Numbered from the stretch's first letter, positions 3,649 through 30,259 are shown. The stretch: DNA of 64,000 nucleotides from an uncultured Chthonomonadaceae bacterium (GCA_963835065.1 CAWIEK010000001.1:161344-225343); one strand, 5' to 3'. Translations and numbers: made by a program. The notes: generated by a model from the letters alone, not told the origin.

Positions 3649-4329
3649 TTAGCGATTTGAACTCTGATAAAGAAGAAACAACTCATCTGTTGCTGATTCA
3701 ACGGAATGGATGCCCTTTTCTGCATCAGCCAACATGCCGTTGGCTTGCTTAATCAGCTTCAGATAGGCGGGATTGCCTGTGCTGCCGAACTCTTCCCACG
3801 CCTTGCATAGTTCCGAACGCAGCGTCAACACGTCCGCATAGGCAGTGTCCACCGCGCGCATTCCTTTGCGAATGGCGTCTGGAAGAGAGGCCGATACTGC
3901 CAATCGGCGAAAGCCTTGCGCATCCATGCGCAAAGCAATTCCGGCTGTATGGAAAACATGCTTATTGACGTTAATCGAGGCTCGCAGTCTCGCTACGCTC
4001 GTCTGGCGACGCGCCACCAGCAATGCCGCCCTTGCTTTTCCGTCATGTGCCGCCGCCACAGCAGCGAGCGCTTTACGCGCCCGCGCCCAGTTTTCGTAAG
4101 CCGCTACCGAAGGCGGCGCGGCTGTCGTCCCCTCGGTTGATGGCTTCATTTTCGTCGTGGCCTGAGACGAGGGCGCGGGGGAGGACGCTATGGGCGTTGC
4201 CGCCACCACCGGGGTATCCGGCGATTGTTGTTGGCCGCTCTGCTCGGCGGACCGGCATCCGGCAAACCAAAATTGAAGAGTGAACGCGATTGGCAGAATG
4301 AACACTCGTTTAGAATAGCGGTGTGACAT
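3649..4329 (-). CDS. Hypothetical lipoprotein, helical C-terminal domain
   Basis: Signal peptide with FAGC lipobox followed by a P/S/T/A-rich linker. Confidence 0.65.
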   Translation of the reverse strand: MSHRYSKRVFILPIAFTLQFWFAGCRSAEQSGQQQSPDTPVVAATPIASSPAPSSQATTKMKPSTEGTTAAPPSVAAYENWARARKALAAVAAAHDGKARAALLVARRQTSVARLRASINVNKHVFHTAGIALRMDAQGFRRLAVSASLPDAIRKGMRAVDTAYADVLTLRSELCKAWEEFGSTGNPAYLKLIKQANGMLADAEKGIHSVESATDELFLLYQSSNR

Positions 4330-4357: not shown

Positions 4358-4879
4358 TCAAGATTTCCCGTCCGGCACATCTGCCGCTGCCGGCCTTTGC
4401 GTGGCCTGATAGTCGAGAAGGACATAGCGAGAAAAGACGGCCAGAAGGAGCATCAGGGCGGCTCCGCACATCGCAGAGGCGTAAGTTTCGATGACAGCCT
4501 GTTGGCGGTCAGTGGCGCTGCCGTCTAAGATGACGTAGCCGATAATCATCGCAAGCAGGCACACAACGGCTAAAACGCTTCGCCGGTTCGTGCGAGACCG
4601 GGATTCCTTCTGAATATTTATGAAAGAAACCGCAGTGAAAAACTCAAGCAAAATCCCCAAGCTCAGACATCCTGTGCCGATGTCGTAGGTTCCCTGTCGC
4701 TCACGCGCATCATGCACTTCCATGAGTTTCCTCTGAAACTCCAGATCAGCGGAGTAACCGCTATTTTCATGATACACAGCGCCCGGCCTGGTGCCGCTGC
4801 CAATGATGAATAGGAATGCCGCGATTGAAAAGACCAGGCACAGGCTGCCGATCATTCCATAAACAAACGCCGGTCTCAT
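4358..4879 (-). CDS. Hypothetical membrane protein (about 4 TM)
   Basis: AGGAGGT RBS before ATG 4879; four hydrophobic stretches. Confidence 0.65.
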   Translation of the reverse strand: MRPAFVYGMIGSLCLVFSIAAFLFIIGSGTRPGAVYHENSGYSADLEFQRKLMEVHDARERQGTYDIGTGCLSLGILLEFFTAVSFINIQKESRSRTNRRSVLAVVCLLAMIIGYVILDGSATDRQQAVIETYASAMCGAALMLLLAVFSRYVLLDYQATQRPAAADVPDGKS

Positions 4880-5050: not shown

Positions 5051-5248
5051 ATTCACGGTAAATTCACCGGGCGAGCATAGGTGTGCCATGCAGAATACAG
5101 CAGGGCAGCGCTATGTGAATTTTCTGTGAATTTACGTACACGCGAGCGCCGGTGGATTAGAATCTCTATAGCATCCGTCTATGCAGGGGATCGGCGGTTC
5201 GCCGTTGAATGTACAGCGCGTGGCAGCGAATGTGCAGCGCGTGGCAGC
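5051..5248. promoter_or_regulatory. Helically phased direct repeats in a divergent promoter region
   Basis: ATTCAC at 5051 and 5062; GTGAAT at 5115 and 5126; CAGC at 5214, 5224, 5235 and 5245 (a 21-bp tandem duplication). Confidence 0.5.
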
Positions 5249-5269
5249 ATATAGATATTGGAGGGGAAC

Positions 5270-7129
5270 ATGGCGCGTGTTGGCAATGGTGGCCTTGAAC
5301 TTCGGCTTTTCGGCCCGTTTGATGCCCGCCTGAATGGAGAGCCACTTGCCGGACTGGCAGAACATCGCCGCGCCGCGCACGTGCTCGCGTTTCTTGCCTT
5401 GCATGGATCGCGGGTTCTGGATCGAGAATGGGTCGCCGATCAATTATCTGAAGAAGACGCGGGCGGAAATCGAATCGAATTTACGCAGGAGAATTTGCGG
5501 CAGCAGTTGATGGCCGCGCGGCGAATGTTGCAGGAGGCTGCTCCGTCCCTTGTATCCGGTCATGGGGTTCTGTCGCTGGCAATGGAGACTTGCTATGTGG
5601 ATACACATGCGTTCGACAAAATTTGGGACGCGCGCCAAACCGACCCGCGCGGCTTGGAGCGGATTGTCCAGGTCTACCAGGGGCCGCTGCTGCAGGATTG
5701 GAACGAAGCCTGGCTGCGGCCACAACGCGACGCCTACGCCCGAAAATACCTGAAGTGTCTCCAAGCGCTTGCGCGACAGGCGGAAGAAGACGAAAACATG
5801 GAAGCCGCCATTGACTATCTGGCAATGGCGGTGGAAACGGACCCCATCAGCCAGCAGGCGCAGAGCAGGCTACTGAAGGTACTGCTTGCTTCTCATGAGT
5901 ATCTCAAAGCGAAGCAGGTATTTGAGCAGTATCATACGCTTCTTCGGGAACAGGGTATGCCGCTTGCGCCGGAAATGCTCCTCCTCTGCGATCAGATTCC
6001 GAAACACGAAGCGGAGGCTGTTTCTTCCTCCAATGTCGCTTCCAGTGTCGCTTCTTCTAATGCTGTTTCTTTAAATGCCGCTTCTTCAAATGCCGCTTCT
6101 TCCGTCGGGGCCGCTTCCGTTGATGTGGAACCGCCCGGCGGCGCGGTACCGCTCCGCTCCCGCTATTATATCGTTCGCCCGGCAGATACGGAGTGTCATA
6201 CAGCGATTGCCCGCAGGGACAGTTTCGTTTTGCTGCACGGTTCGCGGCAAGTCGGCAAAACCTCGGTACTGGCGCGGGGAGTGGAGCAGGCCCGGCGTAT
6301 GGGCGCGCAGGCGCTGCATACCGACTTTCAAAAGTTCAGCGCCGCCGAAATGGAGTCCCTGGATTCCTTCTTTCTCTCCCTGGCGCGGCGCATAGCCAGA
6401 ACTCTGAACCTGCCCGTCTCCCTTCACGACATATGGGATGACCATCTGGCCCCCGGTATGAACTTCGAGCAGTTCTTCCTGGAAAGCGTACTGGAGCCTA
6501 TCCCCGGCCCCGTCGTCTGGGGGTTGGATGAGGTGGATCGTCTGTTTACCTGCGATTATCGCGGCGATGTCTTCAGCCTGTTCCGCTCCTGGCACAATGA
6601 GCGCGCGTTGGCTCCCGGCACACCCCTGGAACGGCTCACAATTCTCTTCTGCTACGCGGTGGAGGCCAACTGCTTTATTCCCAACCTCAATCAGTCTCCT
6701 TTTAATGTGGGAACCAGCATTGCCCTCAACGATTTCTCGCAGTTTCAGGTAGAAGAGCTTTGCAGCCTGCACGATCTTCCCACAGAGGAGGCCGTCTCTC
6801 TTTTTGCCCTGACCTGCGGACATCCTTACCTGACTCGCAACGCGCTCTACGCGCTCAAGACGCGACAGATGAATTGGAATTCGATAGCGGCGCAGGCTGC
6901 CCGCGAGGAGGGTCCCTTTGGCAGCCATCTGCGGCATCTTCGCAAAACGCTTATGGAAAACGAACCGCTTTATCGCGTCGTACAAGGCGTTTTGAAGGGC
7001 GAAGGCTGCGCGAACTCCGAGGCGTTCTATCATCTGACAGCGGCGGGCATTCTGAAAGGGGAGTCGCCGGAGGCCATCGAATTCCGCTGTCCTCTCTATG
7101 AAACTTATTTGAGAAAGCGCCTGTTATGA
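5270..7129 (+). CDS. SARP-type winged helix + BTAD activator domain fused to an AAA_35-like P-loop NTPase
   Basis: N-terminal LRLFGPF, VDTHAF, YQGPLLQDWNEAW, DPISQQAQ; Walker A GSRQVGKTS, Walker B WGLDEVD, SPFNVG, TCGHPYLT. Confidence 0.85.
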   Translation: MARVGNGGLELRLFGPFDARLNGEPLAGLAEHRRAAHVLAFLALHGSRVLDREWVADQLSEEDAGGNRIEFTQENLRQQLMAARRMLQEAAPSLVSGHGVLSLAMETCYVDTHAFDKIWDARQTDPRGLERIVQVYQGPLLQDWNEAWLRPQRDAYARKYLKCLQALARQAEEDENMEAAIDYLAMAVETDPISQQAQSRLLKVLLASHEYLKAKQVFEQYHTLLREQGMPLAPEMLLLCDQIPKHEAEAVSSSNVASSVASSNAVSLNAASSNAASSVGAASVDVEPPGGAVPLRSRYYIVRPADTECHTAIARRDSFVLLHGSRQVGKTSVLARGVEQARRMGAQALHTDFQKFSAAEMESLDSFFLSLARRIARTLNLPVSLHDIWDDHLAPGMNFEQFFLESVLEPIPGPVVWGLDEVDRLFTCDYRGDVFSLFRSWHNERALAPGTPLERLTILFCYAVEANCFIPNLNQSPFNVGTSIALNDFSQFQVEELCSLHDLPTEEAVSLFALTCGHPYLTRNALYALKTRQMNWNSIAAQAAREEGPFGSHLRHLRKTLMENEPLYRVVQGVLKGEGCANSEAFYHLTAAGILKGESPEAIEFRCPLYETYLRKRLL

Positions 7130-10100
7130 GTTCTTTTCCCTCGGACTTCCGGGCGCAGTTTTATACCTGCGGCGGCACGATGACAGGCGATGACCCATCC
7201 TATGTGGAGCGGGAGGCAGACGCCGAACTCTTCGCGGCGCTGCGGCAGGGGCAGTTCTGCTATGTCTTAACCGCCCGTCAGATGGGCAAATCTTCCCTGA
7301 TGGTGCGCGCGTCCCGGCGGCTGCAAGCAGCGCTCCGCCCGGAAGCAGGCGCTGTCGCGCTGCTCGACCTTTCCGCTATCGGCCAGAATGCCTCTGAGGA
7401 ATCCTGGTACTACACGCTGCTGACACAGATGGGAAAGCGATTGGGATTAAGTGGGGAGATGCGCGAATTGTGGCGCGCGCAGACCGATCTTCCTCCCCTG
7501 CAGCGTTGGATCATGGGAATAGAGGAGATTGTTCTGAAGCGTTTTTCCGGGCCGGTAGTGATCTTTCTGGATGAGATTGATATGGTGCGGGGCCTGACGT
7601 TTAAGACAGACGAGTTTTTCATCGCCATACGCGCGCTTTATAACCGCCGCGCCCTGGAACCGGGTCTGGAGCGGCTTACCTTCTGCCTGCTCGGCGTCGC
7701 CACACCCTCCGACCTGATCCAGGACGCGCAGCTGACCCCCTTCAACATTGGCAAGCGCATCGAGCTGACGGACTTCAGCCTGGAGGAAGCCGCTGTTCTG
7801 AAATGGGGCATGAGTGGCGAGGAACTCCTCAGCGACATGCTGCTTAAGCGCGTCCTGTATTGGACGGGAGGGCATCCCTATCTCACGCAGTGCCTTTGCC
7901 AGGCCATCAGCAAAAATCCCTCCCACCAAACCACAGAGGCAGTGGATGAGTTGTGCGACGGGATGTTCCTTTCCGGCGGCGCGCGGGAAAAAGATATCAA
8001 CCTGCAATTCGTCCGTGACCGGCTTCTGAAGTCGGCGGGAGATATAGCCGCTATTCTGGAACTCTACCGGCAGGTTCTATCCGGGCATCGGGTAGCGGAC
8101 TCGGAAGCGGATCAGCGCATCAGCGTACTCCGGCTTTCCGGCGTTGCGCGCGTCATTGACAGGCATCTCGCCGTCCGTAATCGCATCTATGCGCGCGTTT
8201 TTAACCGGGAGTGGATACTGGCGCACATGCCGGACGCCGAACTGCGGCGGCAGAAAGCCGCCTATCGGAAGGGCATTTTCCGCGCCTTGTTCGTCTCCGG
8301 CGGCATACTCGCCGCCATAGCGCTTTGTGGCATGGTCGCGTTTATACAATGGCGGCATGCCGTCGCAGAAGGGCTGCGCGCGTCCGCAGAGGGTCTTCGC
8401 GCGTCCGCGGAGCATCGTCGCGCAGAAGGCTTACGCTATACCTCGGACATGGCATTGGCGCAAATTTATTACGACCGTCAGCAGTATCGTCGCCTGGCGC
8501 AGGCGTTGACGGATCACTTGCCTTCCCCGGAGGAAAAAGAGGACCTGCGCGGCTGGGAGTGGGGCTACTACTGGCAGCGGATGCACCGTGATCTGCATAC
8601 GTTTCAGCATAAGGGAAAAGGTATCGTCTATTCAATAGCCTTCTCTCCCGACGGCAAAATGTTGGCCTCGTCCAATGGCGACGGCTCGATCCGCTTCTGG
8701 GATACCATGTCAAAGCGCGAGATGCCGCCCGGCCTGGACGAGCATAACGACGAGGCGCTTTCCGAGGTATTCTCCATCGCCTTTTCCCCGAAAGACTCTA
8801 ATCTCCTGGCCTCCTGCAGCGCCGATGGCACGATCAAGTTATGGGATGTCGCCGCTCGGCGCGTAAGGAAAACGTTCTCTTTCGGCGCGGCGGTAAACGC
8901 GCTGGCTTTCTCCCCTGACGGCAAGTATCTGGCGGCAGGCGACGCGAAGGGCGTGTTGTCCCGCCTGGATATGGCTTCGGGCCGCGTCACGCCATGGCAG
9001 GGTGGGAAAGAAGATGCGATCAACGCGGTGGCCTTCTCCCCCGATGGCCGTTGGCTGGTCGCCGGGTATGCCCCCAGTGGCAAGATCAGGCTCCTGGAGG
9101 CGTCTTCCCAACGCGCGATAGACCTCGCCCCCTCCTCTGCGCAGGGTCATATCTATTCGACGGCTATCTCCCCGGACAATCGCGCGCTGGCAATCGGCAG
9201 GAACGATGGCACTACGGAGATATGGGATATTCCCTCAAGGCACAGGGTAAACACGCTTCACGGCCATACCGACACGGTTCATGGCCTGGCATTTTCACCT
9301 GACGGCAAGTGCCTGGCAACCGGCAGTTGGGATAATACGATCCGCCTGTGGAATCTGGCAGAGCGCAAAACAATTCACACCTTCATCGGCCACACCAGTA
9401 GGGTCACGTGCGTCGCATTCTCCCGCGACGGCAGCGTCCTGGCCTCCGGCGCGGGAAACGAGGTCAAGTTCTGGGATACGCGGCGGCTGGAGGACAATCC
9501 ACGCATGTTGAATTGGCCGGTCAACCTGAAAATGGAGGGTTACGCGCAAGAACTGGCGTTTAATGCCAATAGTGTTCCCAATCTATGGATCAGGAAATCT
9601 CATCCCTCTGCGCTGACACTGTTTGACCTTACGGACTGGCGTAAGCGCCAATCTTTAGAAATGCCGGCAAATCCAGGCAGTGCCGCCTTTTCACCGGATC
9701 ACAAAATGCTGGCTATGGGAAGTAACGATGGAACGGTGAGGCTGCAAGACTTACAAACAGGAAAGGTGAAATCTTGTTTCCCGGTTGACGCGCGCGCGAA
9801 AGAGCGCAGGCAGATAGATGTTTGCAGCCTGGCCTTCTCTTCTGACGGTAAACTGTTGGCAGCGGCGAGTGGAGACCCTGCTGTCGTAACGCTGTGGGAA
9901 GTCGCCACGCAGCGGCTAATCGGGCAATTTCAGCACTCGAATGCCGCGCAGAGAATTGCTTTCTCCCCGCAGGGAACCCTGCTGGCGGTTGCCAACTGGC
10001 AGGGCCACGTTTTTGTGTGGAACTACGCGGCACACACGGGGAAAGTAGAAGTAAAGGATGTGGAAGGCTGGGCGGCCCACAGTAAATCCGTAACGGACGT

Positions 10101-10338
10101 CGCCTTTTCTGCGGACGGGCGCACACTTGCAACCGGCAGCGAAGACCACACCGTCAAGTTATGGAATGTTGCCACGAAACGCGAGATGATTACATTTCGG
10201 GATCATAAGGAGGCCGTCTATAGAGTTCAGTTCTCTCCCGACGGCCGTATGCTGGCTACGTTAGACCGTGACCATAAAATTTGCCTCTATTCTGCGGCTC
10301 TTCCGAGGGAAGTCAGCATGGACAAAGTCAGTCCCTGA
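7126..10338 (+). CDS. AAA_35-like P-loop NTPase + TM helix + WD40 beta-propellers
   Basis: SYVEREAD, TARQMGKSS, IFLDEID, TPFNIG, WTGGHPYLT; TM segment ALFVSGGILAAIALCGMVAFI; DLRGWEWGYYW; about 13-14 AFSPDG/WD repeats; ATGA overlap with the upstream gene. Confidence 0.9.
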   Translation: MSSFPSDFRAQFYTCGGTMTGDDPSYVEREADAELFAALRQGQFCYVLTARQMGKSSLMVRASRRLQAALRPEAGAVALLDLSAIGQNASEESWYYTLLTQMGKRLGLSGEMRELWRAQTDLPPLQRWIMGIEEIVLKRFSGPVVIFLDEIDMVRGLTFKTDEFFIAIRALYNRRALEPGLERLTFCLLGVATPSDLIQDAQLTPFNIGKRIELTDFSLEEAAVLKWGMSGEELLSDMLLKRVLYWTGGHPYLTQCLCQAISKNPSHQTTEAVDELCDGMFLSGGAREKDINLQFVRDRLLKSAGDIAAILELYRQVLSGHRVADSEADQRISVLRLSGVARVIDRHLAVRNRIYARVFNREWILAHMPDAELRRQKAAYRKGIFRALFVSGGILAAIALCGMVAFIQWRHAVAEGLRASAEGLRASAEHRRAEGLRYTSDMALAQIYYDRQQYRRLAQALTDHLPSPEEKEDLRGWEWGYYWQRMHRDLHTFQHKGKGIVYSIAFSPDGKMLASSNGDGSIRFWDTMSKREMPPGLDEHNDEALSEVFSIAFSPKDSNLLASCSADGTIKLWDVAARRVRKTFSFGAAVNALAFSPDGKYLAAGDAKGVLSRLDMASGRVTPWQGGKEDAINAVAFSPDGRWLVAGYAPSGKIRLLEASSQRAIDLAPSSAQGHIYSTAISPDNRALAIGRNDGTTEIWDIPSRHRVNTLHGHTDTVHGLAFSPDGKCLATGSWDNTIRLWNLAERKTIHTFIGHTSRVTCVAFSRDGSVLASGAGNEVKFWDTRRLEDNPRMLNWPVNLKMEGYAQELAFNANSVPNLWIRKSHPSALTLFDLTDWRKRQSLEMPANPGSAAFSPDHKMLAMGSNDGTVRLQDLQTGKVKSCFPVDARAKERRQIDVCSLAFSSDGKLLAAASGDPAVVTLWEVATQRLIGQFQHSNAAQRIAFSPQGTLLAVANWQGHVFVWNYAAHTGKVEVKDVEGWAAHSKSVTDVAFSADGRTLATGSEDHTVKLWNVATKREMITFRDHKEAVYRVQFSPDGRMLATLDRDHKICLYSAALPREVSMDKVSP

Positions 10339-10372
10339 ACCGAATACCTAATCAGTTGATCAATTCAGTTGA

Positions 10373-10651
10373 TCAATGTGGGGCGCGCAGGGATGGCAGC
10401 CTGCTGAGTTTGAGCTGCTTCTGGTTACGCGCCTGTGAGGGGCTAAGTTCGTCCTTCGCGCCGATGCCGCTCCAATGGATGACAGCAGCGCCGAGACATA
10501 CCAAAGCGACCCCGGCGATAGCCACCGCATGAGGCAGTTTCAAACCGGCAAGCGGTATGGTATCGGCGTCGGGCAGGGATTTTGGCTTACCCGGCGTGGA
10601 AATAACCCCGTTCTTGCTGTGGCCGCGATGAATGGTGACAAGTTTTGCCAT
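10373..10651 (-). CDS. Small hypothetical protein with one TM helix
   Basis: GAGG RBS before ATG 10651; hydrophobic stretch AVAIAGVALVCLGAAVI. Confidence 0.5.
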   Translation of the reverse strand: MAKLVTIHRGHSKNGVISTPGKPKSLPDADTIPLAGLKLPHAVAIAGVALVCLGAAVIHWSGIGAKDELSPSQARNQKQLKLSRLPSLRAPH

Positions 10652-10686: not shown

Positions 10687-11544
10687 TCAATTGGGCCAGA
10701 ACGTCGTAAGATTAGCCTGCGCTTGCAGGTACGCCAGGCACGTTCGCGAGGCTCCGGGGTAGGCCGGCCCGTCCGGGTTGGCGCACCACTTCCCATAGTC
10801 CTCGGCATGTTTGGGAAAGGCGACGGTTGTGCCATCGGAGTAGACGCCGCCCTGCCAGGGCAGGGATTTGGCATGACCATCCGCATACAGCATGTTGAAC
10901 TGGCCGCGATGCCGCAAGTCGCTGTTGCGGCTGCCGGCGAAATTACTCAGGATCGCATTCCAAACCACTGTGTAGAACGGATAGTCGTAGGTATCTCCGA
11001 AGGCGAAGGTGTCGGCAGGAGCCACGAGCGCCGCGAGGGACTGGCCGGGAGCCACATACACGCTGCCTGTCTGGGATAGAGCCTGCACCAATCCCCCGCC
11101 CGCATAAACGTTGACGCCGAAGTTGTAGCCATAGCCCAGGCAGCGGTCACTGCGAAACCCGACTTCGGTAAATCCAAGACTGTTGCAATCCTTTGCGGTT
11201 CGGTCAGGACAAAAGAAAACTTCCTCATTGTTGATATAGGAATGGAGAGCGGTGGAAATGTCATAGGCGAGATTGGACGGCGCGCTCCCGACCAGAACTA
11301 ACGTCGGGTAAGTCTCATCGTTGTCCTGCGCGTACATACTCAGCGCGCTGCCAAGCTGCCGGGTATTGCTCAGGCAGGCCGTTTTGCGCGCGCTTGCCCG
11401 CACTTGCGCAAAGACAGGAAAGAGGATCGCGGCCAGTATCGCAATAATCGCGATGACCACAAGCAATTCTATGAGCGTGAAGCCCTGATGCCGCCCTCGC
11501 AGGGCAGGCAAACCGCAAGGGACAGACGGGGAAAAAGGGCGCAT
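10687..11544 (-). CDS. Prepilin-type N-terminal cleavage/methylation protein with H-X9-DG motif (DUF1559-like)
   Basis: [31 protein letters not shown]...[21 protein letters not shown]. Confidence 0.9.
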
Positions 11545-11659
11545 GGGCACGTTCCTATTCAGGGCGCGTTCTATACACGCCGTCAAAAACAAAGATAGCA
11601 GAGTATTGGCGGCTGAACCCGTAAACTTTATCCCTCCGGCACAGTATCTTTAGAAAGGG

Positions 11660-26057: not shown

Positions 26058-26300
26058 GATTTGTGGTTTCCTTCAAGCGGATGAAAAACATCAGAAAGGT
26101 ATCTTTTACAGTACCTGATAATACCTGTTCGCAGAGAGTTTCCCGCCGTTGGCAGGACGGAAATATTGTTCAAGTGACGCTTTTTGGTGGAAAAAGCACA
26201 GGTGCAAAGCGGGAAGTTGTCGAAGATAGTAGTGTTTTGTTGCTGCATAACCGAAGTCCGTAGGCGTTGTGAACGTAAAATTGTGGAGAGAATAAAGAAG

Positions 26301-29060
26301 ATGCGCCGTACAAACTGTTGGGTCTATTGCTCTGCCATCGTTGTGATTCCTCTTTGGCTTCAAGCGCAAACCGCGCGGGCGGCTCCACCTCCCAAACCGG
26401 CCAAATCCAAGCCGTCTGCCGGACTGCCGCTGAAACTGAAGCCATCGGGCAGGTATGTGGAAGATTCCAGGCAACCGCCCTTGTTTGCGGCGGCATTGAC
26501 GGACGATCTGCCGCGCGTCAAGGCGCTGCTGGCGAAAGGGGCCGATCCCAATACGCGCGACATGGACGGCTCCATGACGGCGCTGATGGCGGCGGCTCTC
26601 AACGGCAACGCGCAAATGTGTCGCGTCTTGCTGGACGCGGGCGCGAAAGCCGATCTTAACGATGGGGATGCGGACAAGAACACCGTGCTGTATTACGCTG
26701 CGGGTTCAGGCAACATAGCAGTGGTTCGCTTGTTTCTCACGCCCGGCAGCGACAAGCCTACGCTCAATCACAGCCTGAGCGCGGCAACAATCGGCGGGCA
26801 TGAGGACATTCTGAAACTGCTGCTGGCACAGGGCGCCGATCCCAACGCCGAAGGCTGGGCCGGAACAACGCCGCTCCAATTTGCTGTTGAAGGCAATAAC
26901 GCCGCCATTGCCAACCTGCTGCTTGACGCCAAAGCCGACCCCAACCTGCGCGATGGGGAAGGCCAAACGCCGCTGATGCTGGCGGCGGAAAAGTCGCGCC
27001 TCGACATGGTCGCCCTGTTGCTTAAACGCGGCGCAAATGTGAACGCCAAGGACGAGCTGGGCAAAACCGCGCTGCTGTATGCGACGGGCAAACAGCGCGA
27101 CGCCCTGCGCGCCCTGCTCCTCAACGCGGGAGCCAAAGAATTCCCGCCCAATCTGTTCGACGCCGCACGGCAAAGCGACATTAAAACCGTTCGCGCGCTG
27201 CTGGCAAAGGGCGCGAACCCGAACGAAACCGATGAAAAGGGATGGACGCCCCTGTTCTATGCGGTGAAATCGGGTGGGATGCGCGATACCAATGTCATTC
27301 AGGCGTTGCTGGAAAGCGGCGCAAACCCCAACATTCGCGCCAAAGATGGAGCAACGCCGCTTTCCTTCGCCAAAACAGTAAATGCTGTGGAACTTCTTCC
27401 CCTCCTGCGGCGGGCGGGCGCGGATGCCCCGGAACTTGAGTTGATGGAGGCTCTTAAAGCCGGGGAAACGGAGCGGTTCAAAGAACTGCTTGCCACGATT
27501 CCCGACATCAACGCCAAGAATGAACAAGGCGAGACCGCCCTGACAATGGCCTGCGACATGGGCAGCCACGAAATAATTCAACTGCTGCTGGCAAAGGGCG
27601 CGGATGTCAACGCCACGGACAGGCAGAAGTGGACGCCTTTGTTTCATCTTGTCGGAGGCAGCGATACGGAAGCCGTAAAAGCCCTGCTGGACAGGGGAGC
27701 CAACATCAACGCGAAGGACGAAAGCGGGTTGACTCCCCTGATGCTGGCGAACCCCCATAGCCTGCCTATGTTTCAACTGCTGCTGGAGCGGGGCGCGGAC
27801 GTGAACGCCAAAACGGAGCGCGGTCGAAGTGTGCTGACAGGGATGGCCGATACCGCCGCCCCACAAATCCTGCAATTGCTGTTGAGCAAGGGAGTGGATG
27901 TCAACGCGCTGTCGCGGGACGGGGAAACCGCGCTGTCCAGCGCCGTAGGCAGGCTCAATCTCGCCAATGTCCGGCTGCTGCTCGATCACAATGCCGATGT
28001 CAATGTCGTGGAAAAACTGACGGGAACGACGCTCCTGATGCTCGCGGCGAGAGGCGGCTACCAACCTGCAAAAGACGATCCTGACGCGCGGGAAAACTTC
28101 AAGCCGGAAAACAGCGTTATCATCACCCGCCTGCTGCTGGCAAAAGGCGTGAAGGTAAACGCCAAAGACAGAATGGGACGGACGGCGCTGGCGATTGCCC
28201 GCAAGTCGGAAAATGACGAATTGGCCGCTTTGCTGGTGAAAGCGGGCGCGCAAGCCCCGCGCTCCTCCCCCGGCAGCGACCTGTACACAGCCGTAGACCG
28301 GGATGATATTGTTGCCGCGCAGCAACTGCTCGCGCGCGGAGTTTCCCCCAATACATTCGATCAGGATGGCTATACGCCCCTGATGCTGACGGCTCTGCGC
28401 GGACGGACAATTCTGGTGAAACTGCTGCTGGCGCATGGCGCGCAGCCGGATTTGCACAAAGCCCCGGACGCAACTCCCCTGACAATGGCGTGTGAGGAGG
28501 GGCATCTGGAAATTGTTCGGCTGCTGATCGGCAAAGGCGCGAATCCCAACATTCGCAACGAAATCGGACAAACGCCCCTGATGCTGGCGGCGACAAAGCA
28601 TCAGGCGGAGGTCTGTCGTCTGCTGCTGGCAAAGGGCGTCAATGTCAATGCCGCAGACCTCAGTGGCATGACGCCCTTGATGTACGCCGCGTATACGTCC
28701 AACACAACTGTCGCGCAAATCCTGCTGGAGGCCCATGCGCAGGTCAATGCGCGTACGCGGCAGGGCATAACGGCCTTGATGCTGGCGGCGCAGGCCGGGT
28801 TCGAGGATGTTATCAAATTGCTGCTGGCGCATAAAGCCGACGTGGACGCGAAAACGCCCGAACACGACACCGCGCTGCTGCTGGCGGCGGAACGCGGGCA
28901 ACTGGAAGCCGCGCGCCTGCTGCTTGCCGCCGGCGCAGACCCCAACGCGCATAACGACAACCATGACACGCCGCTATCCCAAGCCGAAAAAGCGGACAAC
29001 GCCGATCTCATCAGCCTGCTGAAACATCTGGGCGCAAAAGATACGGAGGCAAAGCCATGA
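26301..29060 (+). CDS. Secreted ankyrin-repeat protein (more than 20 repeats)
   Basis: Many G-x-TPLM-x-AA...LL-x-x-GADVN repeats; signal peptide ending ARA. Confidence 0.92.
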   Translation: MRRTNCWVYCSAIVVIPLWLQAQTARAAPPPKPAKSKPSAGLPLKLKPSGRYVEDSRQPPLFAAALTDDLPRVKALLAKGADPNTRDMDGSMTALMAAALNGNAQMCRVLLDAGAKADLNDGDADKNTVLYYAAGSGNIAVVRLFLTPGSDKPTLNHSLSAATIGGHEDILKLLLAQGADPNAEGWAGTTPLQFAVEGNNAAIANLLLDAKADPNLRDGEGQTPLMLAAEKSRLDMVALLLKRGANVNAKDELGKTALLYATGKQRDALRALLLNAGAKEFPPNLFDAARQSDIKTVRALLAKGANPNETDEKGWTPLFYAVKSGGMRDTNVIQALLESGANPNIRAKDGATPLSFAKTVNAVELLPLLRRAGADAPELELMEALKAGETERFKELLATIPDINAKNEQGETALTMACDMGSHEIIQLLLAKGADVNATDRQKWTPLFHLVGGSDTEAVKALLDRGANINAKDESGLTPLMLANPHSLPMFQLLLERGADVNAKTERGRSVLTGMADTAAPQILQLLLSKGVDVNALSRDGETALSSAVGRLNLANVRLLLDHNADVNVVEKLTGTTLLMLAARGGYQPAKDDPDARENFKPENSVIITRLLLAKGVKVNAKDRMGRTALAIARKSENDELAALLVKAGAQAPRSSPGSDLYTAVDRDDIVAAQQLLARGVSPNTFDQDGYTPLMLTALRGRTILVKLLLAHGAQPDLHKAPDATPLTMACEEGHLEIVRLLIGKGANPNIRNEIGQTPLMLAATKHQAEVCRLLLAKGVNVNAADLSGMTPLMYAAYTSNTTVAQILLEAHAQVNARTRQGITALMLAAQAGFEDVIKLLLAHKADVDAKTPEHDTALLLAAERGQLEAARLLLAAGADPNAHNDNHDTPLSQAEKADNADLISLLKHLGAKDTEAKP

Positions 29061-29113
29061 AGCGTGGAAGGAGGGGGCGGAAACAAGTGGAGGGGAAACA
29101 GAGAAAGATAAAG

Positions 29114-30259
29114 ATGAAAAAGAGCCTGGCCGCGCGCGTTTGCAGTCTGGCGCTTCCGGCAGTGTTCGGCATCGGCGTATGCCTGCTGCCGACAAGCCTC
29201 TGCCACGCCTCGCCGCCAAAGAAGGCTGGAGCAAAACCGCGCGCCGCTTCCAAAACGGATGCGAGTAAAGCCACGCTGCCCCAGCGCCTGATACAGGCCG
29301 TTCAGCAGGGCGACGCCGACGAAGTGGAAACTCTGCTGGCAACAGGAGGGAACCCGAACGCCGTTGATACTCAGGGCAGGCCGCTGCTGGTACAGGCGGT
29401 CTTAAGCGGAAAACCGGACATCATCGGCAACACGGAGAAAATGGGCGACGCGGACATCGTACTGCTGCTTCTGGAGCGGGGCGCAAAGATCAATGCGCGC
29501 GGACCGAACGGCAATACCGCCTTTGCCCTGTCCGCAACGGTGGGCAACAAAGAGATTTGCGAACTGCTGATACAGCGCGGAGCCGACATCAACACGGCGG
29601 ACAACAAAGGGATTACGCCGCTGATGTATGCGGTGGCGCGCTCCAATCTGGACATCGTAAACCTGCTGCTGACGAAACCGGTCAACATCAATGCCAAAAT
29701 GCGTGATGGCGTCACCGCGCTTTCCCTGTGTGTCCTGTTGATGCAGGCGCAGGAAGAGAAGCAGGCAAAGTCGAGACTGTCGGTCCTGCCTTCCGCGCAA
29801 TTTTTGAAAGATGTGGTTCGGGAAGATATTTTTGTCGCGCTGTTGGAGAAAGACGCGGATGTGAACGCCCGGCTGACCGACGGCATCACCATTCCGATGC
29901 TGGTGGCGGCCATTGGCTCCGATAAGATGCTGCGCCTGACGCTGAACAGGGGCGTGGACATCAACGCGCAGGCGGCTGTCGGCACAACCGCGCTGATGGC
30001 CGCTGCGGAAACCGGGAACGCGCCCGGCGTGAAAATTCTGCTTGCCGGAGGAGCCGACCCCAACATCAAAAACAACGCGGGCGTCACCGCGCTGATGATA
30101 GCGGCGCAAAAGGGGCGCTACGTGATTTGCGAACTGCTGCTGAAAAAGGGCGCGGACCCGGCCCTGCAAAACAAAGCCGGGGAAACCGCCCGCGCCCTTG
30201 CGGAAAACGCGAACCTGACGGGCATCGTCAATCTGCTCAAACAGGCAGAAAAGCCGTAG
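29114..30259 (+). CDS. Secreted ankyrin-repeat protein
   Basis: Signal peptide followed by about 9 ankyrin repeats. Confidence 0.9.
   Translation: MKKSLAARVCSLALPAVFGIGVCLLPTSLCHASPPKKAGAKPRAASKTDASKATLPQRLIQAVQQGDADEVETLLATGGNPNAVDTQGRPLLVQAVLSGKPDIIGNTEKMGDADIVLLLLERGAKINARGPNGNTAFALSATVGNKEICELLIQRGADINTADNKGITPLMYAVARSNLDIVNLLLTKPVNINAKMRDGVTALSLCVLLMQAQEEKQAKSRLSVLPSAQFLKDVVREDIFVALLEKDADVNARLTDGITIPMLVAAIGSDKMLRLTLNRGVDINAQAAVGTTALMAAAETGNAPGVKILLAGGADPNIKNNAGVTALMIAAQKGRYVICELLLKKGADPALQNKAGETARALAENANLTGIVNLLKQAEKP

Follow-up and report, generated by a model that had tools for sequence, protein, structure and literature searches.

Operons that encode two STAND ATPases side by side have been described for cyanobacteria, in which WRAP constitutes the C-terminal portion of a STAND ATPase, the gene for which is coupled to one encoding a TIR-STAND protein; this coupling is conserved, sometimes with a caspase, and a role in innate immunity has been suggested (Dunin-Horkawicz 2014, as cited by Pereira & Lupas 2022, PMC9218822). 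A stretch of 64,000 nucleotides from an uncultured Chthonomonadaceae bacterium (GCA_963835065.1 CAWIEK010000001.1:161344-225343), hereafter called the window, contains at positions 5270-10338 a pair of genes, A and B, which, judged by their sequences, belong to the same paired-STAND family. The NTPase of gene A carries the head of a SARP-type transcription activator and that of gene B a predicted membrane helix followed by WD40 propellers, and the pair likely relays signals from the cell envelope to transcription without a kinase.

The WRAP operon (Npun_R6612 and its TIR-STAND partner) and the pair described here both consist of two coupled STAND genes, effector-NTPase first and NTPase-WD40 second, with NTPases from the same clades. 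The head is TIR or caspase-TIR in the WRAP operon, whereas it is SARP here, with cyclase-TIR versions encoded elsewhere in the same genome. WRAP-like blades have been amplified recently (median identity 0.97), in contrast to the old, diverged blades of gene B (0.28), and the pair further differs in its RGWEW cap, its candidate operator and the phylum of its host. In a G171 protein, a class B protein with a membrane helix, the propeller is identical at 572 of 573 positions to PDB 2YMU; the gene before it has an 8-nt overlap with it and codes for an N-terminus that reads as TIR-like in the sequence, plus an NTPase within clade A. A CHAT-TIR-AAA_35 version is carried by a named Nostoc plasmid. 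Because WRAP and its partner fall into the same two NTPase clades, the two-gene split is not new; new relative to the WRAP operon are the SARP output and the likely operator. An initial annotation of the window, generated by a model from the sequence, had held that no characterised system with this architecture was known. This stands with respect to function, as no functional test of a paired-STAND operon was found in the literature searched, but not with respect to the split, which has been published for cyanobacteria. The same literature yielded no description of a SARP version, although the supplements of the 2014 paper may list SARP heads.

Architecture of the two proteins

5270..7129, + strand: gene A (619 aa), SARP-type head, Ser/Ala linker and class A AAA_35 STAND NTPase, without sensor repeats
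5294..5980, + strand: SARP head, an OmpR-type winged helix followed by BTAD (Pfam, aa 129-237)
6023..6124, + strand: low-complexity linker rich in Ser, Ala and Asn, with a 15-nt length variant in environmental relatives
6125..7126, + strand: class A NTPase module with P-loop, helical and winged-helix subdomains
7126..10338, + strand: gene B (1070 aa), class B AAA_35 NTPase, membrane helix, stalk, RGWEW cap and 13 WD40 blades
7153..8265, + strand: class B NTPase module, Walker A (TARQMGKSS) and Walker B (LDEID) both intact
8290..8346, + strand: predicted single transmembrane helix (aa 389-407), with 6 Lys/Arg before and 2 after it
8347..8586, + strand: helical stalk and RGWEW cap, common to membrane Ser/Thr kinase-WD40 receptors
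8596..10293, + strand: WD40 region of 13 diverged blades, median blade identity 0.28

The stop codon of gene A and the start codon of gene B share the sequence ATGA at 7126-7129, and both open reading frames (ORFs) lie on the + strand where the initial annotation had placed them. Gene A starts with the ATG at 5270; an in-frame TTG at 5258 would give 4 aa more. The proposed order of winged helix, BTAD, Ser-rich linker and NTPase in gene A is borne out by Pfam matches to BTAD (E 2.8e-7) and AAA_35 (aa 289-615, E 9.9e-69) and by a profile of 13 heads, gene A's included, which matches AfsR (8HVR, E 1.6e-20) and EmbR (2FEZ, E 1.9e-19) over profile positions 2-242. The winged helix received no Pfam call when the protein was scanned singly; Trans_reg_C was called in 10 of the 18 BTAD heads of the homologue set, and gene A's own head is among those uncalled. 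With the OmpR-type winged helix and BTAD of a SARP, gene A is predicted to be a transcription activator, which as a SARP would act via RNA polymerase.

AfsR has an NB-ARC-type ATPase and a TPR tail. Activators of the AfsR/EmbR type resemble gene A in their winged helix and BTAD head followed by a STAND-type NTPase, and resemble the locus in having 11-bp direct repeats as binding site, but AfsR is one chain, whereas in the present pair a separate protein, with an NTPase of its own, is the sensor. According to PMC10972967, AfsR is switched by the kinase AfsK.

The AlphaFold model of the gene A NTPase (pLDDT 94) is closest in fold to the archaeal STAND ATPases PAB2304 and SSO1545 (TM 0.64-0.65), followed by ORC/Cdc6, Avs3/Avs4 and CED-4, in agreement with the STAND-like NTPase proposed at the outset. 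The module has the STAND order of P-loop, helical (GxP) and winged-helix subdomains, with the Walker A motif GSRQVGKTS at 6239-6265. Its best structural matches (SSO1545/PAB2304, Avs3/Avs4, MalT and ORC/Cdc6) are single-chain sensors or replication initiators, however, with 11-17% identity, and a search by sequence for solved homologues found none for either NTPase. A conceivable affiliation is with the paired Npun2340/2341 family of the MNS clade (named in PMC8195603); the leading fold matches are ATPases of the SSO/PH type.

In gene B, Pfam detects AAA_35 at aa 17-359 (E 4.9e-25). The NTPases of genes A and B share 32% identity across 249 aa (E 4e-22), and by homology to gene A the NTPase of gene B would also have the STAND fold. 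The Walker A, Walker B, PFN.G and GHPY motifs, by which the two P-loop modules had been recognised as related, are present in both proteins and conserved across 46 A and 52 B homologues. A further two-gene STAND operon, nSTAND2, is predicted to assemble into a hetero-multimeric toroid, one partner of which bears variable effectors (Kaur et al. 2021, PMC8195603). One of its NTPases has eroded motifs and bears GT4 or HEPN, whereas the NTP-binding motifs of both partners are intact here and a membrane helix is added.

The NTPase of gene B is followed by a hydrophobic helix (aa 389-407, Kyte-Doolittle 2.35), while the C-terminal remainder never exceeds 1.1, and the protein is predicted to be oriented with its N-terminus inside and its C-terminus outside. 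Such a helix directly follows the NTPase in 54 of the 57 class B homologues with a tail, as expected from the transmembrane segment first suggested for gene B; 49 of these 54 have more Lys/Arg on the N-terminal side, and none of the 57 has a second hydrophobic segment. Tails found behind the helix include CHASE2 (locus L034) and NlpC/P60 (L087), and tails without it include PAS/GAF (L033) and histidine kinase (L035).

In the AlphaFold model of aa 408-1070 (mean pLDDT 84.8), a long helix and two short helices bearing the RGWEW motif are followed by the propellers, on which 13 blades were counted from the strands. The NTPase, membrane helix, RGWEW motif and WD40 repeats (claimed as 13-14) of the initial annotation were thus recovered, but its AEGLRAS stalk repeats are a short local duplication that is absent from the homologue stalks compared. 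A search with the cap region gave 119 matches, 70 of them with a GWEW-like motif; 55 of these 70 have an N-terminal kinase, as the earlier comparison with Ser/Thr kinases had implied, and a membrane helix lies between in 53. Membrane Ser/Thr kinase-WD40 receptors, which are uncharacterised and known by database labels, share membrane helix, stalk, GWEW cap and WD40 repeats with gene B but have a kinase inside, where gene B has its class B AAA_35 NTPase.

In two environmental relatives, one WD40 loop of gene B is extended by an insertion of 18 nt (window position 9006). A 13-nt tandem duplication right after gene B (10352-10377) is present as a single copy in one relative.

Distribution and pairing of class A and class B NTPases

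AAA_35 was detected in 30 of 151 genomes of the host phylum, probably Armatimonadota according to the source labels of the top homologues, which read Chthonomonadaceae, and in none of 14 control genomes. The genome that contains the window has roughly ten genes of class A and nine of class B, some of which are frameshifted. The loci analysed comprise 80 of the 81 clusters formed by the stronger AAA_35 matches, with weak partial matches and C48 of this genome set aside. In a quick tree of 52 of the 123 sequences, A and B form two separate deep clades with a support of 100. A scan of 65 class A heads assigned 18 to BTAD and most of the remainder to TIR or cyclase-TIR; heads of the trypsin, HTH, caspase-TIR and kinase types also occur, and four gave no match. 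The C-terminal tails of class B are mostly WD40. Synechocystis slr0143 ('Hat') may be a characterised member; the literature searched yielded no description of its domains.

The genome survey suggested with the initial annotation showed that the pair is conserved. SARP-headed A genes (67 in 38 genomes, the latter counted by hand) have a B gene directly downstream in 55 cases and elsewhere in the locus in 8; three have none and one lies at a contig end. These pairing counts, like those that follow, include kin and overstate the number of events because kin are not independent. Of the 46 A genes with other heads, 28 share their locus with a B gene. In the 80 B loci from cyanobacteria, A lies directly upstream in 38 cases, elsewhere in 8 and not within 5 kb in 34. 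In one cyanobacterial ORF (L162:8846-11023), the B and A NTPases are joined. One search for related loci with the class A module as query returned nothing. A conserved third gene was not found at the pair loci; prepilin-type genes lie near 9 of them, but the genome has 69 such genes.

Neighbouring A and B genes also occur in divergent or convergent arrangement (L055, L243, L262, L276, L285; L084, L085). The cyanobacterial variants L122:4721-8299, L162:8846-11023, L179 and L181 contain the B module twice, join B to A or repeat the C-terminal portion of the B module. Class A proteins with TIR or cyclase-TIR heads are encoded in the window's genome at C54:110019-112301, C57:1234-2943, C58:2175-4226, C60:96696-98927 and C7:55735-57096; three of these five loci are without B, and B genes at C44 and C53 are without A. 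Receptors and outputs could possibly mix in trans within this genome. Its second SARP-headed pair (L105, C54:71905-76369) has GTGAC-N6-GTGAC upstream and a B gene split by a frameshift. Proteins that combine BTAD, TIR and AAA_35, and thus a transcription head plus TIR, exist as well (P0016-P0022 and others).

Predicted interaction of the two NTPases

The predicted dimer of the A and B NTPases reached a complex score of 0.36, against 0.00 for the best of three controls, with a contact agreement between runs of at least 87% and partner pLDDT values of at least 84. The mark set for this score was attained by 116 of the 157 solved pairs and by 2 of the 215 mismatched ones; at scores of at most 0.60, it was attained by 18 solved pairs and both mismatched ones. 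The distances of A and B correlate over 30 adjacent pairs (rho 0.84, equalled in 0 of 2000 permutations), but linkage or co-inheritance alone can produce such a correlation. Binding of A to B is weakly supported by the model. The hetero-oligomer of the initial annotation has thus gained a weak predicted interface; mixed A/B oligomers may form, and their formation may activate the system.

Upstream region and candidate operator

5115..5131, + strand: candidate SARP operator 1, GTGAAT-N5-GTGAAT (11-bp period), facing gene A
5051..5067, - strand: candidate SARP operator 2, GTGAAT-N5-GTGAAT, facing the divergent gene
4358..4879, - strand: divergent orphan of 173 aa, hydrophobic, candidate regulated target
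3649..4329, - strand: orphan of 226 aa that follows the divergent gene after 28 nt, with a lipoprotein-like signal (FAGC, from sequence), candidate second target
5207..5248, + strand: polymorphic tandem duplication of 21 nt ahead of gene A, probably incidental

The classical SARP site consists of 11-bp direct repeats (PMC10972967). Direct repeats with this period near the promoter, as expected for a SARP, are present here as a sequence feature: GTGAAT-N5-GTGAAT occurs twice in the genome of 8.0 Mb, once per strand, and both copies lie upstream of gene A, in the 378-nt gap that separates it from the divergent gene. A wider regulon for this sequence was not found across the genome. The boxes are likely a SARP operator, which would fit the classical site.

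Operator tests were applied to 65 of the 67 SARP-headed A genes, as two with truncated 5' ends were dropped. A test that assumes no motif found period-11 repeats upstream of 13 of the 65, compared with a mean of 1.1 and a maximum of 2 in 20 shuffles, 2 of 37 non-SARP A genes and 21 of 395 random long ORFs of the window's genome; other periods were also raised (period 12 in 8/65, period 21 in 7/65). The consensus (G/T)TGA(C/A) is repeated at period 11 before 12 of the 65 genes, gene A included (10 genomes, two loci near-identical), before 0-2 of them at other periods within 7-16, and at period 11 before 32 of 3128 long ORFs of the genome. Of 441 positions compared across three environmental relatives, 26 vary, none of them within the four GTGAA cores; this is too few to be informative. 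Scans of the region for promoters and terminators gave results near chance.

The 21-nt duplication was rejected as an operator because period-21 repeats precede 71 of 395 random long ORFs of the genome, in which tandem repeats of this period far exceed those of other periods. It is present as a single copy in one environmental relative, and no regulon was found for it.

At the homologous loci, the biggest upstream ORF is divergent in 27 of 51 cases, four of which are the B partner and several probably shadow frames. Five of the 27 have PEP-CTERM-like ends, as judged by eye, and others are repeat-rich proteins that look exported, among them FG-GAP, Kelch-Ig, RCC1, ankyrin and prepilin proteins. 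For the 173-aa protein, the best ESM Atlas match (0.88) belongs to unnamed clusters and serves as a lead only.

Proposed mechanism and alternatives

In the favoured mechanism, to which a probability of roughly 0.55 is assigned, a ligand on the outside propellers would trigger a mixed STAND oligomer, by which SARP heads would be arrayed on the 11-bp boxes and neighbouring envelope genes activated. Gene B would reside in the inner membrane with its propellers outside and would bind an envelope or extracellular ligand. The stalk would relay this signal to the cytoplasmic NTPase of gene B, leading to nucleotide exchange and nucleation of a mixed A/B oligomer. Clustering would align the winged-helix-BTAD heads of A on the boxes at 5051-5067 and 5115-5131, from which the divergent membrane-protein and lipoprotein genes, and probably also the A-B operon itself, would be activated. 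The biological role is likely envelope or surface remodelling and not cell suicide.

Several observations weigh against this mechanism. Concerning the receptor, the helix is missing from several cyanobacterial B-WD40 proteins (L035:5971, L136, L146, L185, L192, L195), and L039, a class B protein with the helix, has a caspase-like C-terminal domain, so that outside-facing sensing is not universal. No partner lies in the analysed locus for 18 of the 46 A genes without a SARP head or for 18 of the 61 B genes, some of these at contig ends. Gene A reads YAVEANCF where the family has YATEAHLF, with V at a T position that is 93% conserved. The complex score of 0.36 falls into a range in which, short of a high prior, most passes are wrong. 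Regarding the operator, the 11-bp consensus, which was picked after inspection of the data, is missing within 260 nt of 53 of the 65 homologues, and the strict motif-free test is passed by just 1 of 19 BTAD genes of the genome. The divergent 173-aa gene has a homologue in none of the 67 other genomes of the order (1/68, own only). A crude signal-peptide heuristic flags 8 of 27 divergent ORFs as against 3 of 8 controls, so the trend towards exported targets cannot be called specific.

As proposed for WRAP, the pair could instead be an immune system against invaders, in which the propeller senses a protein of a phage or competitor and A turns on a defence gene, e.g. the divergent membrane protein as a growth-arrest effector. 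The operon family is the same, class A often bears TIR, caspase-TIR and trypsin heads, the NTPase fold of gene A resembles Avs3/Avs4 and CED-4, and both the frameshifted copies in the genome and the patchy distribution over 30 of 151 genomes would suit such a role. It is nevertheless unlikely: PADLOC gives no match for A and matches B via the WD40 repeats alone, the 33 other proteins of the window have no full-length match to defence families above the cut-off, the blades are diverged (0.28) where those of the WRAP-like protein are nearly identical (0.97), and the divergent neighbours of homologues resemble surface proteins.

Gene B might also act as an anti-activator at the membrane and keep A inactive in a heterodimer, from which a ligand or proteolysis frees A to oligomerise alone on the operator. 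A transcription factor has to reach DNA, A is without a sensor or autoinhibitory repeats of its own, the predicted complex fits sequestration as well as activation, and orphan A and B genes suggest mix-and-match partners. Such a role is improbable, as both NTPase sites are intact and conserved beyond the needs of a tether and the B-A fusion would leave a partner that cannot be released. Hardly probable is co-transcription without mixed oligomer or transmembrane signalling, with each NTPase acting alone or the helix as a mere anchor and the WD40 repeats sensing in the cytoplasm. The weak complex score, the helix-less cyanobacterial B-WD40 proteins and tree correlations explicable by linkage alone are in line with it, but linkage persists whether the genes are ordered A-B or B-A, are divergent or are fused, and class B shows a positive-inside bias and extracytoplasmic tails.

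Starting from the favoured mechanism of a ligand-induced mixed oligomer, it may tentatively be proposed, with somewhat less than even chances, that paired AAA_35 NTPases constitute a general phosphorylation-free class of transmembrane signalling, which would add a third route to those of histidine and Ser/Thr kinases. Mixed STAND rings would be nucleated by exchangeable receptors (WD40, CHASE2, TPR, NlpC/P60) and would carry exchangeable outputs (SARP activator, cyclase, TIR, protease, kinase). At the present locus, receptor, activator and operator would make up a complete circuit, in which assembly of the ring at the membrane turns on genes for surface proteins. Since 2014, the paired-STAND operon has been interpreted as a system of bacterial innate immunity; with the SARP output and the genome-unique predicted operator, a simple reporter assay could show whether the two NTPases form a single switch and whether it signals across the membrane. 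If the proposal is true, NLR-like hetero-oligomers also act as everyday relays from envelope to genes without phosphorylation.

Other genes of the window

The nearest Ser/Thr kinase found lies about 41 kb from the pair. Two adjacent ankyrin-repeat genes are located at window positions 26184-30256 (+ strand), whose matches to named families are below the cut-off and arise via the repeats alone. A tRNA gene (817-888, - strand) lies about 2.8 kb before the divergent gene pair, and a prepilin-type gene (N_methyl, DUF1559-like) at 10687-11592 on the - strand, one of the 69 in the genome, is convergent on gene B.

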